A DNA stretch of 64,000 nucleotides from Planctomycetota bacterium (GTDB lineage: Bacteria > Planctomycetota > UBA1135 > JAKEFM01). The position numbers and the translations under genes were made by a program. Shown here piece by piece: positions 11,549 to 46,903 of this stretch; position 1 is the stretch's first letter, and every line of letters starts with the position of its first letter. The stretch lies in assembly GCA_035695825.1 (NCBI GenBank), contig DASRRH010000010.1, forward strand, positions 3,806-67,805, in the 5' to 3' direction. Under the pieces are notes generated by a model that made no database searches, had not been told where the DNA came from, and saw only the letters and a list, made by a program, of their open reading frames with translations.

Positions 11549-11708
11549 GTTCGAACGACCAGGGATGCGCTCGGTCCGCGCTTTATCGAGCGCCCCTTCA
11601 TACGGAGAGGGAGGAGGAATGATGGGCACCGGGAAGCGCGATTGACCCCCTCGGCGGGCGCCGCTAGCCTGCTCGAATCCGCCTCCCCCGCCCCTTCAGG
11701 AGAGCCCG

Positions 11709-11897
11709 ATGAGACGAATCCTCGCCGCCGCCGTCCTCGCCCTCCTCGCCTTCGGCGCGGCCGGCTGCCGCACGATCGGCTTCTGGGTTGAGGACGTGAG
11801 CAATCACGTGACGGTCATGCGCCGGGACCTCAACTCCGTGCACCGGACCTTCGACCGGTACTTCCTGAACTACGACTGGGAGGATCCCTACCTCTAG
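11709..11897 (+). CDS. small predicted lipoprotein
   Basis: 62 aa: MRRILAAAVLALLAFGAAGC (signal peptide + lipobox Cys), preceded by aggagag. The non-repetitive sequence ends ...YDWEDPYL. Confidence 0.55.
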   Translation: MRRILAAAVLALLAFGAAGCRTIGFWVEDVSNHVTVMRRDLNSVHRTFDRYFLNYDWEDPYL

Positions 11898-12892
11898 CCC
11901 GCCGTTCCCCCGGGGGAGGAGCCCGGGGAGGAAGACGCCTCGCCCCCTCGAGGGAGGGGAGGGATCTCGAGCTTGACGGCCACCCGCGCCGCGACATCGC
12001 GGGGATCGTCGTCCTCTCCGACGTCGATCCACCGCAGGTCCGGGTAGCTCCGGAACCAGGTCCTCTGGCGGCGGGCGAACGCGCGGGTCGCCTTGATCAC
12101 GGCGAGCCGGCACTCCTCGAGGGAGAGCCTCCCGTCGAGGTGATCGAGGACCTCCCGGTAGCCGAGGGCCTGGGCGGACTGGGGACCGAAACCCCCGCCG
12201 TCCCGGATCCGGGCGACTTCCACCACGAGCCCCCGGGCGAACATCGCCTCGACGCGCCGCGCGATCCGCCGGTGGAGTGCGTCGAGATCCATCCGGAGGC
12301 CGACGAGGACGCGGTCGCGCTCCGTTCGGGGGTTCGCCCAGTCGCTCTGGAGCTCCGAGATCGGGCAGCCCGTCAGTCGCCACACCTCGAGGGCGCGGAC
12401 GACCCGCTTGACGTCGTTCGGGTGGAGGCGGGAAGCCGCGACCGGATCGACCGCGGCGAGCTCCCGGTGGAGCGCGAGACCTCCCTCCTCTCTCGCACGG
12501 CGGTGGAGCTCTTCCCGGAGACGGGCGTCGGGGGGCGCGCCCGTGAGGAGGCCGTGCGTGAGCGCGCGGAGGTAGAGGCCCGTCCCTCCCACGAAGAGGG
12601 GAAGGGCACCCCGAGCCTCGACCGCCGCGGCCGCCGACTCCGCGAGGGCGAGGTAACGGGCGACGTTGAACGACTCGGCCGGGGTGACCAGGTCGATCCC
12701 GTGGTGCGGGAGGACCGCGCGCTCCGCGGCCGTCGGCTTCGCCGTCCCGATGTCCATCCCCCGGAAGACCTGCATCGAGTCCATCGAGATCGCCTCGATC
12801 GGGGCGAACCGGGCGAGCGCGAGAGCCACCGCCGTCTTCCCCGAGGCGGTCGGGCCGACGAGGAAGCGGTAGCGAAGGTAGCCGCGCGGCAA
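11894..12892 (-). CDS. miaA: tRNA dimethylallyltransferase
   Basis: 332 aa: LVGPTASGKTAVAL, MDSMQVFRGMDIGTAKP, HHGIDL, VGGTGLYLRAL. Confidence 0.93.
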   Translation of the reverse strand: MPRGYLRYRFLVGPTASGKTAVALALARFAPIEAISMDSMQVFRGMDIGTAKPTAAERAVLPHHGIDLVTPAESFNVARYLALAESAAAAVEARGALPLFVGGTGLYLRALTHGLLTGAPPDARLREELHRRAREEGGLALHRELAAVDPVAASRLHPNDVKRVVRALEVWRLTGCPISELQSDWANPRTERDRVLVGLRMDLDALHRRIARRVEAMFARGLVVEVARIRDGGGFGPQSAQALGYREVLDHLDGRLSLEECRLAVIKATRAFARRQRTWFRSYPDLRWIDVGEDDDPRDVAARVAVKLEIPPLPRGGEASSSPGSSPGGTAG

Positions 12893-12904
12893 CGCGGAGC
12901 CCGC

Positions 12905-14185
12905 TCAGGCGGGGAGGAGGACCGAGACCGCGAGCCGATCCGGCCGGAAGAGGCGCCGGAGCCACTCCTGCGCCTCCTCGAGTCGCGCCTCCTCCAGGGC
13001 GCGCACGTGGGCGAAGGGAGGAAGCCCGCGCAGGGCCTCCCGCAGGTGACCCATGGCCGTCGACTCGGAGGACTGGTAGCGGCGGACCGCCGAGCCGACA
13101 TGGCGACGCCGGACGCGCTCGAAGTCCTCCGGCCGGATCCCCTCGCGCTTCGCGCGCTCGAGCGTGACGAGGAGCTCCTCCCGGAACCGGGCGGGCTCGC
13201 TCGTCTCCCCGCCGAGGACGGTGAAGGCGAAGTCGGTCTCGACGGTCGCGGAGGCGGAGAAGGACTCGTCGATCACCCCCCGGCGGTAGAGGTCCTGGAA
13301 GACCTCGCTCGAGCGCCCGAAGAGCGCCTCGAGCGCGAAGCCCCCGGCGAGATCCTCCCGGATCAACGCCTCCCCGGGGCCGGGCCCGCCGTCGGATCGG
13401 AAGCCGAGGAGGACGCGGGGCCGGGAGATCGTCATCTTCTCTTCCACCTCGCGGGTCCGGACCTCTCCTTCCTCCGACACGGGGAGCGCCGCCCCCTCCG
13501 GTCCCTCCCATCCCGCGACCCACCCCTCGATCCGGGAGAGGAGCGCCTCCGGGTCGAAGTCCCCCGCGGCGACGAGGACGAGGTTCCCCGGCCGATAGAA
13601 GGCGCGGTGGCATCGCAGGCAGTCCTCCGCCGTGATCGACCGGACGGAATCGACCGTCCCGCCGGGAGGATTGCGGACCGGATGGCGCTCGTAGAGGGCT
13701 CCGAGCAGGTTGAAGAAGACCCGCCAGCCGGGGTTGTCGAGATACATCCGGATCTCCTGCTCGATGATCCCCTTCTCCTTCTCGACGCGCTCGGGCGTGA
13801 TCGAGGGGTTCTGGACGAAATCGAGGAGGAAGGCGAGGCAGGTCTCGAAGTGGTCCGTGCAGGTGAAGTAGTAGTGCGTCGTCCGGAATGAGGTCGCCGC
13901 GTTGCAGGCCGCCCCGAGCTCGGCGTAACGCTGGAAGACGGGGACGGTCCGACCCTCGAAGAGCTTGTGCTCGAGGAAGTGGGCGACTCCGTCGGGCACC
14001 CGGGTGGGCGCCCCGCCAGGCCCCTCGACGAACTCCCGGTCGCAGGAGCCGAACCGCACCCCGAGGACGCCCGTCGCCCGAACCTGCCCGGGCTTGCGCG
14101 CGAGGAGGACGGGGAGGCCCCGCACCCGCGCCCGGCGCGCCTCTTCCCCGATGCGCGCCTCGACGATCCGGTCCGAGGGAATCAC
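12905..14185 (-). CDS. M16 (pitrilysin) family zinc peptidase, catalytic-type subunit
   Basis: A GTG at 14185 overlaps the upstream stop (GTGA). Contains the inverted zinc motif HFLEHKLF and downstream EKEKGIIEQEI. Confidence 0.85.
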   Translation of the reverse strand: MIPSDRIVEARIGEEARRARVRGLPVLLARKPGQVRATGVLGVRFGSCDREFVEGPGGAPTRVPDGVAHFLEHKLFEGRTVPVFQRYAELGAACNAATSFRTTHYYFTCTDHFETCLAFLLDFVQNPSITPERVEKEKGIIEQEIRMYLDNPGWRVFFNLLGALYERHPVRNPPGGTVDSVRSITAEDCLRCHRAFYRPGNLVLVAAGDFDPEALLSRIEGWVAGWEGPEGAALPVSEEGEVRTREVEEKMTISRPRVLLGFRSDGGPGPGEALIREDLAGGFALEALFGRSSEVFQDLYRRGVIDESFSASATVETDFAFTVLGGETSEPARFREELLVTLERAKREGIRPEDFERVRRRHVGSAVRRYQSSESTAMGHLREALRGLPPFAHVRALEEARLEEAQEWLRRLFRPDRLAVSVLLPA

Positions 14186-15462
14186 GCCTTCCTCTTCCCT
14201 CCCGGATGCAGGAGGAACACCGTGTCGAGCCAGACCCGGCCCGCCGCCTCGACGACGGCCCCCGGGCCCGCCGCGGCGACGGCCGCCTCCTCGTCGGAGG
14301 GAAGGGGGGAGCGGCCGAGCAGGGCCCGCTCGACCGCGTAGGCGATCAGGCCCGAAGGGCTGTCGTCGAGGCCGCGCAGCCGGGTCCGGAGCGCGCGCTT
14401 CCCGGCGACCATCTCGGCGTCGTCGATCTCCCCCCGGCGAAGGGCCTCGACCTGCGCGAGGCAGAGCTCCGTCACCTCCTCCTCTTTCCCGGGGTCGATG
14501 CCGGCCTGGACGACGAGGAGCCCCTTCGGGCGCTCGAGGGAGGCCGAGGCGTAGTAGGCAAGCGAGCGCTCCTCCCGGACCTTCCGGAAGAGCTTCGAGA
14601 AGGGTCCACCGCCGAGGAGGGTCGTGAAGAGCGCGAGCCCGGGGTCCTCCTCGGGTCCCGAGCGCCTCGCCACGCGGAACCCGAGGACGAGCTTCGCCTG
14701 GTCGATGTCCATCTCCTCGTCGAAGCGCCGCCGGGGACGGTCCGGGGGGGGGACCGGCTCGGGCGGAGTCTCGACCCGGCGCGTCCCGAGCGCCTCGGCG
14801 AGCGTCCGCGCCTGCGCCTCGACCACCGCCGGCTCGGCCGGCCCGACGACGAACATGTCGGCCGGAGCCGACCGGAGGATCGAGCGGTGGCGCGCGACGA
14901 CCGCCTCGTTCCCCGCCGCACGGATCGTCTCGGGAGTGCCGTAGGGGTAGTTCGCGTAAGGCTCTCCCTCGCACATCCGGGCGAGGCAGCGCTCGGTCGC
15001 GTACGAGATCCGGTCGTCGAGGAGCCCCTCGACGACCCGCGCGAGGTTCTCCCGCTCCTGCTCGAACACGTCGGCCGGGAACCGGCCGTCCTCGAGGCGC
15101 GGCTCGAGCAAAAGCTCGCGCAGGAACTCGAGCCCCTCCGCGAGAACGTCCGCGCGCTCGGGGAGGTGGCGAGGGGCGACGACGTCGACCGCGAGGTCGA
15201 GCACCTGGCGCTCCCCGACCCGCGAGACGTCCCCGTCGAGCGCCGCGCCGTAGAGGTCGTCGAGACGCCGGCCGATCGACACGAGGTCGGGGTGGAAGCG
15301 CGTCCCCCGGCGGAGCAGCGGGGGAAGCAGGGCCGCCTCGGCCGCCCGCGGGGTGAGCGGGAGGTGGAAGACGACGCGGCAGGTGACCGACTTGAAGCGG
15401 TCGACGGGGAGACGGTGGAGGAAGATCCCCTCCCCCACTCGGAGCCTCTCGAACGCGGGCAT
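14182..15462 (-). CDS. M16 family peptidase-like protein lacking HxxEH (non-catalytic partner)
   Basis: 426 aa of M16-like length and layout (FEQERENLARVVEGLLDDRISYATE...), with no HxxEH motif. Translationally coupled to the downstream M16 gene. Confidence 0.8.
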   Translation of the reverse strand: MPAFERLRVGEGIFLHRLPVDRFKSVTCRVVFHLPLTPRAAEAALLPPLLRRGTRFHPDLVSIGRRLDDLYGAALDGDVSRVGERQVLDLAVDVVAPRHLPERADVLAEGLEFLRELLLEPRLEDGRFPADVFEQERENLARVVEGLLDDRISYATERCLARMCEGEPYANYPYGTPETIRAAGNEAVVARHRSILRSAPADMFVVGPAEPAVVEAQARTLAEALGTRRVETPPEPVPPPDRPRRRFDEEMDIDQAKLVLGFRVARRSGPEEDPGLALFTTLLGGGPFSKLFRKVREERSLAYYASASLERPKGLLVVQAGIDPGKEEEVTELCLAQVEALRRGEIDDAEMVAGKRALRTRLRGLDDSPSGLIAYAVERALLGRSPLPSDEEAAVAAAGPGAVVEAAGRVWLDTVFLLHPGGKRKA

Positions 15463-15468
15463 TGGTAG

Positions 15469-16056
15469 TTACTGGCGCGGCATCCTCGAGTCGAGGAGCC
15501 GGTTCCAGCCACCCCTTTCAAACCGTGCGTGCGGGTTTCCCGCACACGGCTTACCGAGAGTCTTCGCAGACGTGGCGTTCACGGGGTAGCACACGGTACC
15601 GCGCAGGCGATGGAGTCCCAGGGCGTGGAGCCGGGCAGCGGGCCAGCGATCGAAGCGAAAGCTCGTCCGCTGACCGCCCCGCCTCCACATCCAGCGGGCG
15701 AGCCGGTCGCGCACGTACTCGTCGAGCTGGGTGAACTTCAAGGCGGCGTTGCCGGTCTTGAAGTAGTTCCCCCAGCCGCGAAGGACGGGGTTCAGCGTCG
15801 CGATGACCGCCTTCACGTCCTTCGCTCCGCCCCGACTCGCGTCCGTCAGGTCATGGACGCGCTCGCGCACCCGCCTCCACGCTTCCCGCAGGACGTCACC
15901 CCTGCAGATCCGGTCGTAAAGCGCGTGGAAGCGCCGTGTCCTGCTCCGCTTGGCACACCTGTAAAGCGTGCGCTGGAGTTCTCGCACTTTTTCGTCGGGG
16001 TTGTTGGGCCTCACGGCCATGCCCTCGCGCTTACCCCCAGCGCACGCACGACCCAA
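15469..16056 (-). CDS. group II intron-encoded protein remnant: N-terminal segment joined in frame to the maturase (X) domain, RT core deleted
   Basis: VRELQRTLYRCAKRSRTRRFHALYDRICRGDVLREAWRRVRE is joined directly to RVHDLTDASRGG..VIATLNPVLRGWGNYFK...LDEYVRDRLARWMW. The likelier start is MAVRPN at 16020. The tail GKPCAGNPHARFERGGWNRLLDSRMPRQ is a read-through of DV/DVI RNA. Confidence 0.75.
   Translation of the reverse strand: MGRACAGGKREGMAVRPNNPDEKVRELQRTLYRCAKRSRTRRFHALYDRICRGDVLREAWRRVRERVHDLTDASRGGAKDVKAVIATLNPVLRGWGNYFKTGNAALKFTQLDEYVRDRLARWMWRRGGQRTSFRFDRWPAARLHALGLHRLRGTVCYPVNATSAKTLGKPCAGNPHARFERGGWNRLLDSRMPRQ
15520..15552 (-). other. group II intron domain V
   Basis: The minus strand reads AAGCCGUGUGCGGGAAACCCGCACGCACGGUUU. 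It has an AGC triad in the lower stem, a 2-nt bulge on the 3' strand and a GAAA-type apical loop. Confidence 0.85.
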
Positions 16057-16596
16057 GCAGGGCTCCTTCCCTCCGGCGGCTTGTGCGGACCGCCTTCACC
16101 GGTACTACGAGCCCCTCGGACTCCCTCCCGGCTCCGGTCGCTTTCGGCCTCCGGCGTTATGCGCCCGGTCTTCGCCCGACGTGGCCGCCGGGGAGGGTCT
16201 CTCCTGTTCCGCTCCTCACTACTACTTTCGCTACGTCCCGCGCCCTCTACCCCGGGGAGGGCCAGCGACCCATCCGAATGAAGATCGCTGTCCATGGCCT
16301 TCGCCGCGAGATGCCCGGCTCGGCCCTCCCAAACGCCTTTCGGCTGATAATCTGACGAGGCGGCAGGCTTCACTTGATGTTGCGGGCCGCAGCTTCGCTC
16401 CCTCCACGGCCGGAGGCTTTCGATGCCCCGCTCGGCCTCCGACCTCTCGGCCGGGGGCTGGGGCCTGCTACCGGGCGCTTCGGCGCCTACCCGGGCGGGA
16501 CTCTCACCCGCAAGCGAGGGGCAGTTCTCAGGACGCACCACCGGCGGATTTTAGGGGTGCCCCTCGCCCGGCCCGCATCCTTTCCCTCTCCGCCGT

Positions 16597-20154: not shown

Positions 20155-21029
20155 GCCTTCCCCCGGAACGCGAAGTCGGCCCAGACGGCGAGGAAGAAGG
20201 CGACCGAGATCCACCCGTTCACCGTGAAGAAGGCGGCGTTCACTCGGGAGAGGTCTCTCGGCCGCACCAGGAGGTGCTCGACGAGGAGGAGGGCCGCGAC
20301 GAGTCCGATCCCGGCGTAGGTCGGCGCCCCGAGCCCGGCGCGCGCCGCGACGGCGAGGAGGAGCGGGACGACCGCCGCGTGGAGCGCGGAGGAAAGCCGC
20401 AGCGCCCCGGCGACGCCGAGGCGCGCCGGGATCGAACGCAGCCCCTCCCGCCGGTCGAAGGCGACGTCTTGGCAGGCGTAGATCAGGTCGAAGCCGGCGA
20501 CCCAGAGGGCGACCGCGAGCGCGAGGAGGAGGGGGGAAGCGAGGTCTCCCTCGAAGGAGCCGCGCACGGCGAGCCAGGCGCCGAGGGGCGCGACCCCGAG
20601 CGCCGCCCCGAGGACGAAGTGCGTCCCCGCGACGCGGCGCTTCAAGTGGCTGTACCCGAGCAGGAGGCCGAGCACGGGGAGGGCGAGCGCGCCGCAGAGC
20701 GGGGAGAGGGCGGAGGCGAGGAGGAGGAAGGCGAGCGCGTTCCCCGCGACGAAGAGCCGCACGAATCGGGGGGAGATCCTCCCCGCCGGCAGGGCCCGGG
20801 AGGCGGTCCGCGGGTTCCGGGCGTCGAGCTCGCGGTCGGCGAGCCGGTTCCACCCCATCGCCGCGCTCCGCGCCGCCACCACGCACGCGACGAGGAGGAG
20901 GAGGGTGCGCCCGTCGGGCCACCCGCGCGCGGCGAGGAGGGCGCCGACGAGGGCGAAGGGGAGGGCGAAGATCGAGTGGGAGAAGCGGATCGTCTCGAGG
21001 ACGACGGGGATCGGGGCGAGCGCTCTCAT
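20151..21029 (-). CDS. UbiA-family polyprenyltransferase (4-hydroxybenzoate/quinone prenyltransferase type)
   Basis: 292 aa with about 8 TM helices: NRLADRELDARNPRT and YACQDVAFDRREGLRS (the two Asp-rich UbiA motifs). The ATG overlaps the ubiX stop. Confidence 0.85.
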   Translation of the reverse strand: MRALAPIPVVLETIRFSHSIFALPFALVGALLAARGWPDGRTLLLLVACVVAARSAAMGWNRLADRELDARNPRTASRALPAGRISPRFVRLFVAGNALAFLLLASALSPLCGALALPVLGLLLGYSHLKRRVAGTHFVLGAALGVAPLGAWLAVRGSFEGDLASPLLLALAVALWVAGFDLIYACQDVAFDRREGLRSIPARLGVAGALRLSSALHAAVVPLLLAVAARAGLGAPTYAGIGLVAALLLVEHLLVRPRDLSRVNAAFFTVNGWISVAFFLAVWADFAFRGKA

Positions 21030-40014: not shown

Positions 40015-40235
40015 ATCCCCCCGGCGCCGGCCGGCGCGTCGCCTACGGCGAGGGGTGGGTCCTTCTCGCAGGGATGGCCGTCGCTGCAGCCGCCCTCCTC
40101 GGCATGTGGGGGATCGGCTCGCGCGGGTCGCTGCGCGCGCTCGCCGGGATGGCTGCGGTCTACGCGGCCGTCCGCCTCGCGATCGCGCCCGCCGCCGCGG
40201 CCTTCACGCGCCGGCTGCGCAGGGGCGGGCGCTGA
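40011..40235 (+). CDS. small two-TM membrane protein (hypothetical)
   Basis: A GTG at 40011 overlaps the gatB stop. The 74-aa product has two hydrophobic helices (WVLLAGMAVAAAALLGMWGI; LAGMAAVYAAVRLAIAPAAAAF). Confidence 0.4.
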   Translation: MNPPGAGRRVAYGEGWVLLAGMAVAAAALLGMWGIGSRGSLRALAGMAAVYAAVRLAIAPAAAAFTRRLRRGGR

Positions 40236-40240
40236 GCCCC

Positions 40241-40900
40241 GTGGAAGGGGAACGGACGCGGGCCGCTCGGGAGCGGATGGTTCGCGACCAGCTCGCCGGC
40301 CGCGGGATCCGCGACGGACGGGTCCTCGCGACGATGCGGGTCGTGCCGCGCCACCTCTTCGTCGAGCCCTCGGAGGAAGGGCGCGCCTACGAGGACGGTC
40401 CGCTGCCGATCGGGTTCGGCGCGACGATTTCCCAGCCCTACGTCGTCGCCGCGATGACGGAGCTCCTCCGCCTGCGCGGGACGGAGAAGGTGCTCGAGAT
40501 CGGGAGCGGCTCGGGCTACCAGACGGCGGTCCTCGCGGAGCTCGCAGGAGAGGTCTACTCCGTCGAGATCGTCCCCGAGCTTCACGAGCGCGCGAAGCGC
40601 GTGCTCGAGGTCCTCGGCTACCGGAACGTCCACCTCCGCTGCGGCGACGGCGCGCGCGGCTGGCTCGAGGAAGCTCCGTTCGACGACATCCTCGTCACGG
40701 CCGCTCCCCCCGACGTCCCCTCCCCCCTCCTCGACCAGCTCGCCCTCGGCGGGCGGATGGTGATCCCGATCGGGAAGGAGCGGCAGACCCTTCACGTGTT
40801 CGAGAAGACGCCGAAGGGCATGGTGCGCGAGAAGTCCTTCGAGGTCCGGTTCGTGCCGCTCCAGGGGAAGGGGGAGAAGCCTCCCCCCGCGGCCCCCTAG
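40241..40900 (+). CDS. pcm: protein-L-isoaspartate O-methyltransferase
   Basis: GTG at 40241: VPRHLFV, ISQPYVVAAMTELL, VLEIGSGSGYQTAVLA, ILVTAA. Confidence 0.92.
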   Translation: MEGERTRAARERMVRDQLAGRGIRDGRVLATMRVVPRHLFVEPSEEGRAYEDGPLPIGFGATISQPYVVAAMTELLRLRGTEKVLEIGSGSGYQTAVLAELAGEVYSVEIVPELHERAKRVLEVLGYRNVHLRCGDGARGWLEEAPFDDILVTAAPPDVPSPLLDQLALGGRMVIPIGKERQTLHVFEKTPKGMVREKSFEVRFVPLQGKGEKPPPAAP

Positions 40901-41045
40901 CGATCGAGCCGGTCCCCCGATTCCCCGCCGCCCGGCTGGAGGTAGTCGCTCGGGGGCGCTAGCGTTCCTCCGCCGTTTCCCCATGAGAGCGAGTCGCGGT
41001 CTTCTAAGGCGATCGCCGGATTCGCGCGGACGAGGGCGCTGACGG

Positions 41046-42260
41046 ATGCCGGTCTTCGTCCGCGAGGTCGCGCTGCGCCACTACCGGAGCATCTCCCGGT
41101 GCAGGGTGCCGCTCTCTTCCCTCACCGTCCTCGTCGGACCGAATGGCTCCGGCAAGAGCAGCTTCCTCGACGCCCTCCACTTCGTTACGGACGCTCTGAA
41201 CACGACTCTCGAGAACGCCCTCCGCGACCGCGGAGGTATCGATTCCGTGCGGGGGCGGTCGGGCGGACGGCCGACGGACTTCGGCATCCAACTTTCCCTC
41301 AACCTGCGCGAGGGTGGAAGCGCGACCTACGGCTTCCTCGTCCGGGCGGAGAAGAATCGGGCGTTCTCCGTGAAGCACGAAGAGTGTCGCGTGGAAGGAG
41401 CGCCCCTGCGAGGGCCGGAACCTGCCCACTTCGTGGTCGAGAGAGGGAGGGTTCTCTCCATCCGCCCGGCCGTTCGCACGGCGGTCGAGCCCGACAGGCT
41501 CTTCCTGACGGCGGTCTCGGCGAGCCCCGAGTTTCGGCCCGTCTACGATGGGCTCTCGCGGATGGGCTTCTACAACCTGAATCCCGATCGGATCCGCGAT
41601 CTCCAGAACCCGGACCCGGGGAAACGGCTCGCCCGTGACGGCCACAACATTGCGTCGGTCCTCCGGGAGCTGAAGAGGACGACTCCGGCGGCGAAGGACA
41701 CGGTTTCCGAGTACCTCCGGAAGATCGTGCCGGGAGTCGAGTCGGTCGAACCGAAGACCCTGGGACCGAAGGAAACCCTCGAGTTCCGGCAGAGTCACGG
41801 AGACTCCCGTCCGTGGAAGTTCCTCGCGGGGGAGATGTCGGACGGAACGCTCCGCGCTCTCGGAGTCCTCGTCGCGGTCTTCCATGCGGAGGCAGACGCC
41901 GCACAGTCGGTCCCCCTCGTCGGAATCGAGGAACCCGAAGTTGCCATCCACCCCGGAGCCGCGGAGGTCCTCGCCGAGGCCCTGCTCGGAGCGTCGGAGA
42001 CCGTGCAGATCCTCCTCACGACCCACAGCCCCGATTTCCTCGATCACAAGGCGTTCGGCCCGGAGCACCTCCGGTCCGTCGACCTCCTCGAGGGATCGAC
42101 CATCATCACCTCGATCGACGAGGCGGCCCGGTCCGCCCTCCGCGACCGGCTCTACTCCGCGGGGGAACTCCTCCGCATGGGCCAGATCGAGACGAATCCG
42201 GAGGCATTCCGAACCGTGGCCCGCGAGCGGGACCTCTTCGAGGCGGGCCCGGACGGGTGA
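41046..42260 (+). CDS. ABC/SMC-type (AAA_15/AAA_21-like) ATPase, first gene of a two-gene cassette
   Basis: 404 aa: Walker A GPNGSGKSS, signature-like MSDGTLRAL, Walker B LVGIEEPEVAIHP, H-loop TTHSP. Spot-counted G+C is lower than in core genes. Confidence 0.85.
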   Translation: MPVFVREVALRHYRSISRCRVPLSSLTVLVGPNGSGKSSFLDALHFVTDALNTTLENALRDRGGIDSVRGRSGGRPTDFGIQLSLNLREGGSATYGFLVRAEKNRAFSVKHEECRVEGAPLRGPEPAHFVVERGRVLSIRPAVRTAVEPDRLFLTAVSASPEFRPVYDGLSRMGFYNLNPDRIRDLQNPDPGKRLARDGHNIASVLRELKRTTPAAKDTVSEYLRKIVPGVESVEPKTLGPKETLEFRQSHGDSRPWKFLAGEMSDGTLRALGVLVAVFHAEADAAQSVPLVGIEEPEVAIHPGAAEVLAEALLGASETVQILLTTHSPDFLDHKAFGPEHLRSVDLLEGSTIITSIDEAARSALRDRLYSAGELLRMGQIETNPEAFRTVARERDLFEAGPDG

Positions 42261-42920
42261 CCCTCCGGGTCGTCTGCATCGTCGAAGGCCACGCCGAGAC
42301 CGAGACGGTCCCGATCCTGCTCCGCCGGATCGCCCAGGAGGGCGCGCTCTACGACCTCGTGATCCCCCCCGCCCCTCCGGGTCCCGAAGTCAAGGCTTCT
42401 GAAGGAGGCGGAATTCAAGCGAGCCATCGATCTCGCCGGACGCAAGGCGGGACCGGGCGGCTCGGTCCTCGTGCTTCTCGACGCCGACGAGGACTGCCCG
42501 GCGGAACACGGACCGCGCCTCCTTGAGTGGGCGCATCGCGAGCGAGGCGACGTCGAAGGCGCGGTCGTCCTCGCCAAGCGTGAGATCGAAGCGTGGTTCG
42601 CCGCGTCGATCGAGTCCCTGAGGGGCCACCGTAGGGTCCGGCGGGATGCCTCGCCCCCCACCGAACCTGAGGCGATCGAGGACGCGAAGAGCTGGATGTC
42701 CGCGGCGATGGAGTACGGGGCGCGTTACGGGCCGGTCAAGGATCAGGCGGGACTCGCCCAGGCTTTCGACTTCTCGCTCGCGAGAAAGCGGTCTCCATCG
42801 TTCGAGAAGTTCCTTCGGGACGCTTCGCGGCTTCTTCAACTCCCGTCGTACCTGGACGGGGCGACCGCCTGGAGCGATCGACGGGACGTGCTCTCCCGTC
42901 CGACCGCGCGAGACGCTTGA
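42257..42920 (+). pseudogene. TOPRIM-like (DUF4276-type) protein gene, split by a 1-nt frameshift in a C7 run
   Basis: A GTG at 42257 overlaps the ATPase stop (GTGA). Frame A: VTLRVVCIVEGHAETETVPILLRRIAQEGALYDLVIPP. Frame B, open from 42363: PPLRVPKSRLLKEAEFKRAIDLAGRKAGPGGSVLVLLDADEDCPAEHGP...REIEAWFAAS. Removing one C from 42364-42370 gives a single 220-codon ORF. Confidence 0.8.
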
Positions 42921-43208
42921 CCGACGTCGAGAGGAGGACGCAGTCACGGCCCGAGGCTGATGGAGCCTCTCATCGGTGATTCGCCCCCGTAGGCCCGACA
43001 CAGGGAGTCACTTGCAGGGTTTGAAGACACACGTAGCAGAAGCCCGATCGTGACTTATGCAGGGCCTCCGCCCGAACATCGCAGACCAGGCCCCAGACCT
43101 CCCGCGGCGGCGGAGAGGTCGGGGATCGAGGGAGACCCCTTCGACCCCCGGAAGCACGGCCATCACTTCCTGAGGGGGGAATTGCTTCCCGTCGGCCCCC
43201 AGGGACGG

Positions 43209-43277
43209 TCCTACTCCCACTCGATCGTCGCGAGAGGCTTGCTCGAGACGTCGAGGACGACGCGTTCCACGCCGCGC
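43209..43277. repeat. direct repeat copy B (guaA 3'-end sequence, att-like)
   Basis: Shares two identical blocks with 43882-43950, of 23 nt (tcctactcccactcgatcgtcgc) and 26 nt (ggcttgctcgagacgtcgaggacgac), plus cacgccgcg. Confidence 0.85.
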
Positions 43278-43337
43278 AGCTCGGGGGCGATCCGGCACGA
43301 GATCCGCGCGGGGAGCTCCTCCGGCGGGCAGACCCCC
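43211..43337 (-). pseudogene. orphan, diverged copy of the last ~40 codons of guaA
   Basis: Minus-strand translation ...[36 protein letters not shown] compares with authentic guaA ...[36 protein letters not shown]. Confidence 0.8.
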
Positions 43338-43385
43338 TCCGCGGTTCTCCCGCCCCCGGTCGCGACGCGCCGCCGGTCCTTCTCC

Positions 43386-43859
43386 TCAGCGAACCCTTCG
43401 GTCCCTCCGGCTCCATTTCACGATGGGCCTCAGGCCGGCAGCGTTCGCCGCGTTCGTGTAGAGGTCCACGAGTTTGCGGCGGTAGAAGATCGTCCAGAGC
43501 CGGCGATCCCCCTTGTTCGGGAAGAAGGTCCGCAACCCTTCAAACCGTGGCACGCAGCTCTCCGGTTTCCCGGTTTCCCGGAGGAGCTCGCGGACCCACC
43601 CGCTCCACTGCTCCTCCGTGGGGAAGGGGATTTCCGCGAACGACTCCGGGTGGCGCTCGACTCTCTCGCGCGCTCGCCGGTTCGCGAGAACGGAATCGGC
43701 CAGGAGTTCGACCTCTATCGACTCGTCGTAGGTCAGCGTGGCGAGCTGGCCCGTGGTGCGGTCGAGGAAGACCCGCCACGGCGATCCGGCCTCCTCTCGG
43801 AGGACCGAATACACCAGCCACGCGGGAACCTCGACCGTTCCGTCGAGACCAGGATCCAC
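43386..43859 (-). CDS. hypothetical protein (157 aa), the sole gene between the two guaA 3'-end copies
   Basis: Balanced, non-repetitive sequence: ...[26 protein letters not shown]...[20 protein letters not shown]...[22 protein letters not shown]. The layout is reminiscent of UPF0158-type proteins, but I cannot verify this. Confidence 0.6.
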
Positions 43860-43881
43860 GGAATGCCCGGCTCGCGTGGGA

Positions 43882-43950
43882 TCCTACTCCCACTCGATCG
43901 TCGCCGGGGGCTTGCTCGAGACGTCGAGGACGACCCGGTTCACGCCGCGG
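43882..43950. repeat. direct repeat copy A (authentic guaA 3' end)
   Basis: See copy B. This copy is contiguous with the full-length guaA reading frame. Confidence 0.85.
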
Positions 43951-45434
43951 ACCTCGTTGATGATCCGGTTCGAGATCCTCCCGAGGAGCTCCCGCGGCAG
44001 ATAGACCCAGTCCGCCGTCATCCCGTCCTCGCTCGCGACGATCCGGAGCGCGATCACGTTCTCGTAGGTCCGTGCGTCCCCCATCACGCCGACCGTCGAG
44101 ACGGGAAGCAGGATCGCGAAGTACTGCCAAAGCCCCTCGTGGGCGCGGGCCCGCTCGACCTCCTCCACGACGATCGCGTCGGCCTCGCGGAGGATCGCGA
44201 GCCGCTCCTCGGTGACGGGGCCGAGGAGTCGCACGGCGAGCCCGGGCCCCGGGAAAGGCTGGCGAGCGACGATCGACGCGGGGAGCCCGAGCGCGCGGCC
44301 GACCTCCCGGACCTCGTCCTTGAAGAGGAAGCGCAGCGGCTCGACGAGGGCGAAGGGCATGTCCGGCGGGAGGCCCCCGACATTGTGGTGGCTCTTGATC
44401 ATCGAGGTCGCCCCGCCCCACGCCGCGACCGACTCGATCACGTCGGGGTAGAGCGTCCCCTGTCCGAGGAACTTCGCCCGGGGGAACCGCGAGGACGCCT
44501 CCCGGAAGACGGCGATGAACTCGGCTCCGATGCGCTTTCGCTTCTCCTCGGGATCGACGACGTCGCGGAGGCGCTCGAGGAAGCGCGCGCGGGCGTCGAG
44601 GACGGTGAGATCCATGTGGAAGTGGGCGCGGAACGTCCGTTCGACCTCCTCGCCTTCCCCCCTCCGGAGCAGGCCGTTGTCGACGAAGACGGCGTGGAGG
44701 CGCGGGCCGATGGCCTTGTGGAGGATCAACGAGGCGACGGCCGAGTCGACGCCCCCGGAGAGCCCCAACACGACCTCGCCGTCGCCGACCTTCGCGCGGA
44801 TCTCCTCGACGGCCTGCTCGATCACGGAGGAGGGCGTCCAGTCGCCAGCGAGGCCGCAGACGCGGAAGAGGAAGTTCCGGAGGACCTCCCGCCCCCGCTC
44901 CGTGTGGGTCACTTCCGGGTGGAACAGGACGCCGAAGATCCGACCCGTCGAGTCGACGACGGCGGCGTGGGCGCAATTGCCGGAGCGGGCGACGGTCCGG
45001 AACCCCTCGGGAAGGCGCTCCACCCTGTCGCCGTGGCTCATCCAGACGACGCTGCTCGTCGGGACTCCTTCGAAGAGAGGAGAAGTCCCGGTCACGTCGA
45101 GGGGGGAGCGACCGAACTCTCGGGCTTCCCCGGGGACCACCTTTCCGCCGAGGGCCCCCGTAAGCCACTGCATCCCGTAGCAGATGCCGAGGACCGGGAC
45201 GCGCAGGCCGAGCACCGACTCCCGGTCGAGGGCCGGGGCGTCGGTCTCGTACACGCTCGCGGGACCGCCGGAGAGGATCACCCCCTTCGGCCGGAGGCGC
45301 GCGGCCGCCTCGGCGAAGCGCGCGGGGGGGTGGATCTCGCAGTAGACGAGCGCCTCGCGGACGCGCCGGGCGATCAACTGGGCGGTCTGGGAGCCGAAGT
45401 CGACGACGAGGACCGCCTCGTGCGGCGCGCTCAT
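43884..45434 (-). CDS. guaA: GMP synthase (glutamine-hydrolysing)
   Basis: The ATG at 45434 overlaps the guaB stop (ATGA): VLVVDFGSQTAQLIARRVRE, GICYGMQ, LGLSGGVDSAV, SHHNVGGLP, ending ...KPPATIEWE. Confidence 0.95.
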   Translation of the reverse strand: MSAPHEAVLVVDFGSQTAQLIARRVREALVYCEIHPPARFAEAAARLRPKGVILSGGPASVYETDAPALDRESVLGLRVPVLGICYGMQWLTGALGGKVVPGEAREFGRSPLDVTGTSPLFEGVPTSSVVWMSHGDRVERLPEGFRTVARSGNCAHAAVVDSTGRIFGVLFHPEVTHTERGREVLRNFLFRVCGLAGDWTPSSVIEQAVEEIRAKVGDGEVVLGLSGGVDSAVASLILHKAIGPRLHAVFVDNGLLRRGEGEEVERTFRAHFHMDLTVLDARARFLERLRDVVDPEEKRKRIGAEFIAVFREASSRFPRAKFLGQGTLYPDVIESVAAWGGATSMIKSHHNVGGLPPDMPFALVEPLRFLFKDEVREVGRALGLPASIVARQPFPGPGLAVRLLGPVTEERLAILREADAIVVEEVERARAHEGLWQYFAILLPVSTVGVMGDARTYENVIALRIVASEDGMTADWVYLPRELLGRISNRIINEVRGVNRVVLDVSSKPPATIEWE

Positions 45435-46903
45435 TCCGCGACCCAGTAGTTCGCCGCCTCCTTCGTGATCGTGACGTCGTGGGGGTGGCTCTCGCGGACC
45501 GCGGCCGGCGTCACGCGGAGGAACCGCGCCTTCTCCTGGAGCTCCTCGATCGTGCGGGCGCCCACGTAGCCCATCCCCGCGCAGACCCCGCCGACGAGCT
45601 GGTGGAGAAACGAGGAGAGCGGGCCCTTGTAGGGGACCATTCCCTCGATCCCCTCGGGGACGAGCTTCGAGGACTCCCGGACGCCCCCTTGTCCGTAGCG
45701 CTCCTTCCCTCCCTCGACCATCGCCCCGAGCGAGCCCATCCCGCGCACGGCCTTGAAGGCGCGCCCGCGGTGGAGGAACTGCTCGCCGGGGCTCTCGTCG
45801 ACCCCGGCGAGGAGCGAGCCGATCATCACGCAGGAGGCGCCGGCGGCGAGCGCCTTCACGACGTCCCCCGAGAGCCGGATGCCCCCGTCGGCGATCACGG
45901 GAACGCCGGAGGGCCCGGCCTCCCGCGCGCAGGCGAAGATCGCGGAGAGCTGCGGGACCCCGACCCCCGCGACGACGCGGGTCGTGCAGATCGAGCCGGG
46001 GCCGATCCCGACCTTGACGCCGTCCGCGCCCGCCTCGACGAGCTCGCGGGTGGCCTCGGGCGTCGCGACGTTTCCGGCGACGACGTCGACGTCGTGGGCC
46101 TTCTTGATCCGCCGGACGGCCTGGATCACTCCCTCGGAGTGGCCGTGGGCGGTGTCGACGACGAGGACGTCGACCCCCGCTCGGATCAACCCCTCGACGC
46201 GCTCCTCGTCGGCGACGCCGACGGCCGCCCCGACCCGCAGGCGCCCCCGGGCGTCGACGGCCGCGCGGGGGAAGCGCTCGAGCCGGTCCAGGTCGCGGAT
46301 CGTGATCAGCCCGCGCACCCGCCGCTCGCGGTCGACGAGGATCAGCTTCTCGACCTTGCTCCGCCGGAGGCACTCGCGCGCCTGCTCGAGGGTCGTCTCG
46401 GGGGGGGCCGTGACGAGGTTCTCCTTCGTCATGACCTCCCGGACGGGAATCTCCGGGCCGCCGTGGAAGCGGAGATCGCGCTTGGTCAGGATCCCGCAGA
46501 GCCTCCCCTCGCGGACGACCGGCAGGCCGGAGATGTTGTTCTCCCGCATGATCTCCAAGGCCTCGCCGACCTTCGCGTCGTCGCGCAGCGTGATCGGGTC
46601 CTGGATCACGCCGTTCGCCGACCGCTTGACGAGGTCGACCTGCCGGACCTGGGCGGCGGGAGGGAGGTTCCTGTGGACGACCCCGATCCCCCCCTCGAGC
46701 GCGAGGGCGATCGCCAGCCGCGCCTCCGTCACCGTGTCCATCGCGGCGGAGGAGATCGGAATCCGGAGCCCGACGCGGCGCGAGAAGCGGCCCGAAGGGT
46801 CGGCGTCCTTCGGCAGGACCGCGGAGCGGGCCGGAACGAGGAGGACGTCGTCGAAGGTGATCGCCTCGCCGACGACCCTTTCCGAGACGAAGTTCCCTGA
46901 CAT
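45431..46903 (-). CDS. guaB: IMP dehydrogenase
   Basis: 490 aa: [13 protein letters not shown] pair, [24 protein letters not shown]. Confidence 0.95.

Follow-up and report, generated by a model that had tools for sequence, protein, structure and literature searches.

The question raised by this locus, part of a 64,000-nucleotide stretch of the Planctomycetota contig DASRRH010000010.1 (the whole of the stretch analysed is referred to below as the window), is how the 3' end of the GMP synthase gene guaA came to be present twice in direct orientation, with one small gene, orf157, between the two copies. The initial annotation, which described this doubled gene end, took it to be the footprint of site-specific integration, and the guaA 3' end is indeed a documented integration target (PMC9376610, PMC5704250, PMC4701971). 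We show here that a lineage-specific insertion did occur at this position, as evidenced by six relatives that lack the insert. The site-specific mechanism, however, is upheld only in part, there being no recombinase within 15 kb and the repeat extending over 164 nucleotides (nt). We consider, with a probability of roughly one half, that the locus is an integrase-independent recombination scar in the variable gap between the core genes guaA and pcm. This reading is supported by the lineage-specific insertion, the same-lineage ancestry of the two copies, the decay of one of them, the lack of a recombinase or tRNA gene nearby, the alternating content of the gap, the abutment of two homologies at a novel junction and the lower GC content at third codon positions (GC3) of the inserted gene. 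The case illustrates that finding an insert between two copies of a gene end does not suffice to call site-specific integration.

A long direct repeat at the guaA 3' end

The components of the repeat, in window coordinates, are as follows.

43884-45437, minus strand: guaA (GMP synthase), intact, 517 codons, with the Pfam domains GATase, NAD_synthase and GMP_synt_C
43882-44045, minus strand: functional repeat copy, consisting of the final 54 codons of guaA and 2 nt past the stop codon, delimited by repeat search and alignments
43209-43372, minus strand: orphan guaA' pseudogene fragment, 54 codons and stop, with a further 2 nt
43386-43859, minus strand: orf157, the single inserted gene, with a GTG start codon

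The functional and orphan copies constitute the single long direct repeat in the region, 164 nt in length and 80% identical, gapless and in frame, with a spacing of 673 nt. The terminal 21-mer, CTACTCCCACTCGATCGTCGC, has exact matches in the window only at 43211 and 43884, precisely the positions that had been annotated as the ends of the orphan and the authentic gene, respectively. The identical blocks of 23 and 26 nt reported initially were recovered and are unique in the window, the 26-mer GGCTTGCTCGAGACGTCGAGGACGAC being present only at 43236-43261 and 43909-43934, and in dinucleotide shuffles neither this sequence nor the 21-mer had a single match. Both copies encode the C-terminal reading (P/L)ATIEWE* in frame, again in agreement with the initial annotation, which had put the extent of the duplication at ~40 codons; the homology in fact covers ~54. 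An example of guaA-specific sequence is GTGAACCGGGTC, and the flank downstream of the orphan includes GGACCGTCCCTGG.

The repeats are separated by 511 nt in which, as had been noted, orf157 is the only credible gene. It begins 24 nt past the guaA stop codon and ends 13 nt short of the orphan homology, and its GC content by codon position (0.66/0.49/0.83) follows the pattern of coding sequence, by which orf157 is a real gene. Two simpler arrangements were tried and rejected. A sensitive blastn search of the whole window with the guaA end returned the orphan only, and thus there is no third copy or tandem array of gene ends; a 19-nt match at 20964-20982 lies on the opposite strand and looks like chance. 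Plain tandem duplication of a 673-nt unit would require the orf157 region to resemble the spacer downstream of the orphan, and the two have no similarity.

The lineage, represented by a metagenome-assembled genome labelled Planctomycetota, is thinly sampled, and six related loci were recovered (L003, L085, L086, L087, L088 and L090). Both orf157 and the second guaA end are missing from all six, and therefore the insertion at the guaA 3' end did occur and is specific to the lineage of the window. The initial annotation had proposed that such empty sites be sought; those found belong to relatives that are ~10-12% diverged in guaA, and hence are not same-population empty sites. In the five relatives that were compared (L003, L085, L087, L088 and L090) guaA is 88-90% identical to that of the window at the nucleotide level over its whole length. 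The identity is flat along the gene, and an imported 3' end marked by a recombination tract within guaA was accordingly rejected. As for the recombinase-bearing islands that had also been envisaged at guaA, the guaA flanks of the six relatives were read and no integrase-bearing island was seen there. A second gene end is likewise missing from all of 80 more distant guaA loci; only one (L019) contains a second guaA-like stretch, which is a long paralogue. Pattern scans of JGI metagenome contigs for the predicted deletion junction and for further orf157 contexts were empty, but these negatives carry no weight, as the collection also missed the known orf157-bearing JGI contig.

Ancestry and decay of the orphan copy

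The orphan is a pseudogene fragment derived from a partial duplication of guaA. It is collinear with the end of the working gene, substitutions have removed residues that do not vary among the relatives (W to G, N to C, Y to C and I to A), and it is without a usable start, the longest in-frame start-to-stop stretch being ~19 codons. Its reading frame is closed upstream by a stop codon at 43418-43420 and its similarity to guaA ends at 43372; the orphan is thus not part of a longer functional paralogue, a possibility that the initial annotation had raised against its own proposal.

To establish the ancestry of the two copies their final 165 nt were polarised against the five relatives. Four derived states, at positions 58, 106, 112 and 114 from the 3' end, are common to the orphan and the functional copy and are found in none of the five relatives, giving rise to S to P and D to E replacements. 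A further 2-3 changes are private to the functional copy, compared with 27 that are private to the orphan. Convergence is unlikely because three of the four shared states are C to G transversions at third codon positions, and the shared derived states therefore indicate that both copies descend from the lineage's own guaA. These data contradict the earlier proposal that the copies differ in origin, one coming from the host and the other from an element; as judged from the substitutions, the divergence between them is the decay of a same-lineage copy, not foreign ancestry.

The orphan differs from the functional copy by 19 nonsynonymous and 4 synonymous codon differences, and its changes comprise 18 from AT to GC against 5 from GC to AT, the GC content of the proximal part having shifted from 67% to 80%. 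The pattern fits relaxed selection in a genome with 94-96% GC at third codon positions. The decay is also uneven along the fragment, which includes the following block.

43209-43264, minus strand: high-identity block at the distal end of the orphan, comprising its final 54 coding nt and 2 nt beyond, 93% identical to the functional copy and including GAGTGGGA

There are 4 differences in the distal 54 nt and 30 in the 111 nt of bases 55-165 (93% versus 73% identity; Fisher p = 0.004). Similarly, none of the 17 A/T sites in the distal 54 nt has turned to G/C, compared with 18 of the 37 in bases 55-165.

There is a weak hint, in the sequence following the stop codon, that the orphan may be the original gene end. 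The 7 nt past the orphan stop (43204-43210, GACCGTC) match the post-stop flank of L003, L085 and L090 (GACGGTC) at 6 of 7 positions, while the flank of the functional copy does not match GACGGTC; the motif is nearly palindromic and the signal is weak.

A separate observation concerns the substitution process in the proximal part of the orphan (43265-43372, minus strand), where the per-site frequencies of AT to GC and GC to AT change are 0.49 and 0.07, respectively. The implied equilibrium GC of ~0.88 is near the GC3 of the genome and well above the GC content of the neighbouring non-coding spacer (67%). These substitutions could provide a small natural read-out of fixation bias in a high-GC lineage.

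The guaA-pcm gap and its cargo

The gene order at the locus is gatB, pcm, HEC-01A, HEC-01B, spacer, orphan, orf157, guaA and guaB, and the features that lie beyond the orphan are listed below.

40055-40900, plus strand: pcm (protein-L-isoaspartate O-methyltransferase; Pfam PCMT, 9.4e-62), the conserved far flank of the variable gap
41046-42260, plus strand: HEC-01A, an ABC-type ATPase (PADLOC 4.8e-148; Pfam AAA_21 and AAA_15)
42257-42920, plus strand: HEC-01B, a DUF4276, TOPRIM-like protein (PADLOC 3.9e-41; Pfam DUF4276)
42921-43208, no strand assigned: non-coding spacer of 288 nt from the orphan to the convergent HEC-01B

Synteny with L003, L085 and L087 resumes at pcm, and what lies between this gene and guaA varies. 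In L003, L085, L086 and L087 guaA is followed by a gene encoding a DUF642 protein of 605-657 amino acids (aa), two small open reading frames (ORFs) and pcm (in L003 the gap occupies 11552-14448); one of the small ORFs is weakly HEPN-like, and the two are possibly a toxin-antitoxin pair. On L090, a short contig, guaA is succeeded by this same flank, beyond which the DUF642 gene begins. In L088, by comparison, a convergent HEC-01B gene, 77% identical to that of the window at the nucleotide level, lies 88 nt beyond guaA. The guaA-pcm gap, which spans 40900-43884 of the window, is thus a variable hot spot without an integrase, in which at least two cargo sets are found between conserved flanks. 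With its alternating cargo and no integrase in any of the states seen, the gap resembles hot spots that turn over through recombination in their flanks. A protein-domain scan of the 511-nt insert and of 15 kb to each side of it was negative for recombinases and other mobility genes, and the only tRNA gene lies 13.5 kb away. The gap can therefore be marked as a small integrase-less hot spot that swaps accessory or defence-type genes (HEC-01, DUF642 with HEPN-like ORFs, and orf157).

The adjacent HEC-01A and HEC-01B genes constitute, as a pair, a candidate HEC-01 defence system, although the preprint describing HEC-01 detected no defence (10.1101/2024.01.29.577857). In the window HEC-01B is split across two reading frames at a run of C residues (~42362-42376). 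The frameshift is identical in three other assemblies and therefore probably real, the gene being either a pseudogene or the site of a phase-variable tract. The 288-nt spacer contains no frame with a coding GC pattern, and a hidden small gene is therefore rejected; it also yielded no Rfam hit, promoter or terminator, and the RNA fold of the spacer and wider region has a z of -1.3.

The GC3 of orf157 and the HEC-01 genes is 0.79-0.85, compared with 0.94-0.96 in core genes, a difference in composition that suggests acquisition. The family to which orf157 belongs is small and uncharacterised, its weak homologues (130-155 aa) having been found only by exhaustive HMMER search, and shares the motif R..G.....R..V...P......P.P.......W....L. 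The protein has no match in Pfam, PADLOC, PHROGs or NCBIfam, and Foldseek, given its confident AlphaFold2 model (predicted local distance difference test score, pLDDT, of 82.7), retrieved nothing from PDB or BFVD at E <= 0.001. Relatives of orf157 were likewise absent from tblastn searches of plasmid and phage collections and from viral contigs.

Most of the contigs that carry distant homologues of orf157 are too short to reveal a genomic context, and L092, a Logan contig of 2.1 kb, is the sole informative one. Here the homologue P0008 (524-943, ~30% identical) is directly upstream of a tyrosine integrase (1122-2123; PF00589, 8e-15). A closer relative is found at 350-560 of L083, a low-coverage ENA contig of 592 nt, which contains only the final 63 codons of an orf157-like gene, at 86% nucleotide identity and embedded in unrelated sequence; either the gene has left a remnant elsewhere or the contig is chimeric. 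Comparison with this sequence bears on the boundary between orf157 and the orphan.

43367-43376, minus strand: novel junction, at which the orf157-like similarity of L083 stops (43367) and guaA similarity starts (43372-43376)

The two homologies thus abut within about 5-10 nt, with an overlap of a few bases (CGG/CG), and the junction looks like an illegitimate (microhomology) joint. The other side of orf157 is marked by a potential structure.

43852-43884, minus strand: imperfect 9-bp hairpin, GGATCCCACG...CGTGGATCC, read from the sequence and beginning at the final base of the guaA stop codon

The 3' arm of the hairpin includes the GTG start codon of orf157, and the structure might couple, or gate, the expression of orf157 from the guaBA transcript.

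Origins of the duplication

In the explanation that we favour, an integrase-independent recombination scar, the host recombination machinery would join orf157-bearing DNA into the guaA 3' end. This could proceed through homology-facilitated illegitimate recombination, with a homologous anchor in guaA and a microhomology joint at ~43370. An equivalent route would be a single (Campbell-type) crossover between guaA and a small circularised fragment, from the same or a sister strain, that carried a piece of the guaA 3' end. Either route would lead to duplication of the last 164 nt of guaA. As a consequence one copy remains the working end of guaA, while the orphan, which lies beside the HEC-01 genes, has decayed under a strong G/C bias.

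It should be emphasized that several observations sit uneasily with this explanation. The donor arrangement, in which guaA is followed directly by orf157 without a duplicate, was found in no genome. The two-level pattern of identity is not what a single duplication followed by uniform decay would produce, and three explanations for it remain: gene conversion that is confined to the distal block, a genuine attachment (att)-type repeat, or some constraint. Most simply, the near-identity of the last 54 nt would reflect continuing gene conversion from the working copy, but this conversion is an assumption, and the size of the block and its exact position at the gene end, with GAGTGGGA, are typical of the att direct repeats reported at guaA (PMC4701971, PMC9376610). 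The pairing in L092 is a single lead, nothing else suggesting that mobile elements carry the orf157 family, and the microhomology at the junction depends on the one low-coverage 592-nt contig, L083. A reading that takes the block at face value is that orf157 and the guaA' fragment form a minimal recombinase-less mobile cassette, which moves via the ~54-nt block at the guaA 3' end. In this role the block would provide either RecA with a homology handle or a trans-acting integrase with its att site, and selection for mobility would preserve it while the remainder of the orphan decays. If the 54-nt block were indeed a working recombination site the cassette would be an unusually small guaA-targeting element of ~0.7 kb; the evidence does not favour this view, to which we attach a low probability.

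It could be argued that the locus is instead a decayed site-specific integrative element, similar to a cis-mobilizable element (CIME), in which a tyrosine-recombinase island entered at guaA and deletions subsequently took the integrase and nearly all of the cargo. The functional end would represent attL, followed by orf157 and then the orphan as attR, and the segment might still be mobile if a related integrase were supplied in trans. Consistent with this argument elements of several phyla have recurrently used the guaA 3' end as their att target (PMC5704250), and the genomic island GIsul2, which has a 19-bp attB, uses an 8-bp core, GAGTGGGA, encoding E-W-E, that is present in both copies (PMC9376610). 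The 93% identical block, 54 nt in length and ending 2 nt past the stop codon, also falls within the range of 12-54 bp reported for the direct repeats of site-specific integrative and conjugative elements (ICEs), of which those at guaA contain the exact gene end (PMC4701971). The absence of the insert from relatives, the reduced GC3 of orf157 and the position of P0008 directly upstream of a tyrosine integrase point in the same direction. The explanation fails, however, on three counts, namely the integrase, the foreign ancestry and the cognate element. Genes for a recombinase, an excisionase or transfer are absent from the insert and the surrounding 30 kb as well as from the sequence that follows guaA in the six close relatives, a duplicated end occurs at none of the 80 other guaA loci, and just 511 nt separate the repeats. 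The homology, moreover, runs in frame and without gaps for 110 nt past any reported direct repeat, and because this extension carries the lineage's own derived substitutions it is not the arm of an element, nor is the surrogate end foreign. In addition, the orf157-like homology of L083 stops where guaA-like sequence starts. We therefore regard a decayed element as doubtful, albeit deserving of serious consideration. Less probable again is the proposal that the orphan arrived with the HEC-01 cassette, on a fragment of an L088-type sister strain (in the order pcm, HEC-01A, HEC-01B, spacer and the last 164 nt of the donor guaA) that recombined via pcm and was joined illegitimately, at its guaA-end side, downstream of a resident orf157. 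The direct convergence of guaA and HEC-01B in L088 provides such a donor order, a donor closely related to the window would account for the shared derived sites, and nothing separates the orphan physically from the spacer and the HEC-01 side; the presence of HEC-01 in the window and L088, and of DUF642 in its place in four other relatives, indicates that cassettes have been exchanged. The proposal nevertheless needs two accessory acquisitions instead of one and a resident state, orf157 directly after guaA, that is seen in no relative. It likewise leaves the two-level divergence unexplained, and no similarity could be detected between the 288-nt spacer and its 88-nt counterpart in L088.

The possibility that selection maintains a co-opted orphan, either whole or in its distal 54 nt or G/C-enriched proximal part, for example as a terminator or stabiliser of the guaBA-orf157 transcript or as a barrier to read-through into the convergent HEC-01 genes, would explain why the distal block is far better conserved than neutral decay of the remainder predicts. 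The proximal part, with its elevated GC content, also folds at -66.9 kcal/mol compared with -49.8 kcal/mol for the functional copy. Against this, the fold energy of the orphan is no better than that of composition-matched shuffles (z = -0.54), and the wider region, as described above, is similarly unexceptional. The orphan region matches no Rfam family even at E <= 1, contains no terminator-like or promoter-like site and has no homologous orphans elsewhere from which covariation could be assessed, and we consider co-option very improbable. Finally, since the source is a metagenome-assembled genome, and two Logan contigs end within the guaA 3' end (43913 and 43958), an assembler might have stitched two strain variants of the gene end in tandem. 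The junctions, however, are 100% identical in two Logan contigs from separate sequencing runs (L001 and L002) and in the JGI contig L089, which spans the entire structure; because these independent contigs agree, the duplication is not an assembly artefact. The orphan, which has lost W and N residues, is also too diverged and degenerate to be a strain allele of a working guaA, and an artefact is hardly credible.

As in GIsul2, ATE-1, the Brucella suis IncP island and ICE_SmiB6_guaA (other guaA-targeting elements are listed in PMC5704250 and PMC4701971), the target is the extreme 3' end of guaA, and the similarity to GIsul2-type islands extends to the GAGTGGGA core in both copies, a direct repeat that ends at the gene end and an insert that is missing from relatives. 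Islands at guaA, however, carry int, have short repeats and are at least 10 kb in size, whereas here there is no integrase, the insert is 511 nt, and the repeat, at three times the longest reported, keeps the reading frame and stems from the guaA of the host lineage itself. The locus resembles a CIME in being a small recombinase-less segment bracketed by direct repeats of the end of its target gene. The repeats of the window, in contrast, reach far beyond an att site, and a CIME is defined in relation to a cognate integrase-bearing element that shares its att site. Neither the 30 kb surrounding the locus that were scanned for protein domains nor the guaA loci of the six close relatives yielded such an element.

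The locus is also similar to integrase-less hot spots and to the products of homology-facilitated illegitimate recombination, with which it shares conserved flanks (guaA and pcm), alternating cargo, the lack of mobility genes and one microhomology junction. In such events, however, loss of recipient DNA is commoner than the duplication of 164 nt of it. A further parallel is provided by the orphan C-terminal modules downstream of cdiA and rhs, where the end of the main gene is likewise followed by a small gene and then by an orphan copy of the gene end. Those orphans, however, share the 5' part and bear a new 3' toxin domain together with an immunity gene, while at guaA it is the 3' end that is conserved, the gene encodes a housekeeping enzyme and the orphan is degenerate.

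Elsewhere in the window Rfam identified group II intron pieces on the minus strand at 15490-15554 and 16375-16513 (D1-D4, 73.8 bits; Intron_gpII, 41.2 bits). An ORF of 195 aa lies at 15469-16056, and the region may contain a group II intron or its remnant.

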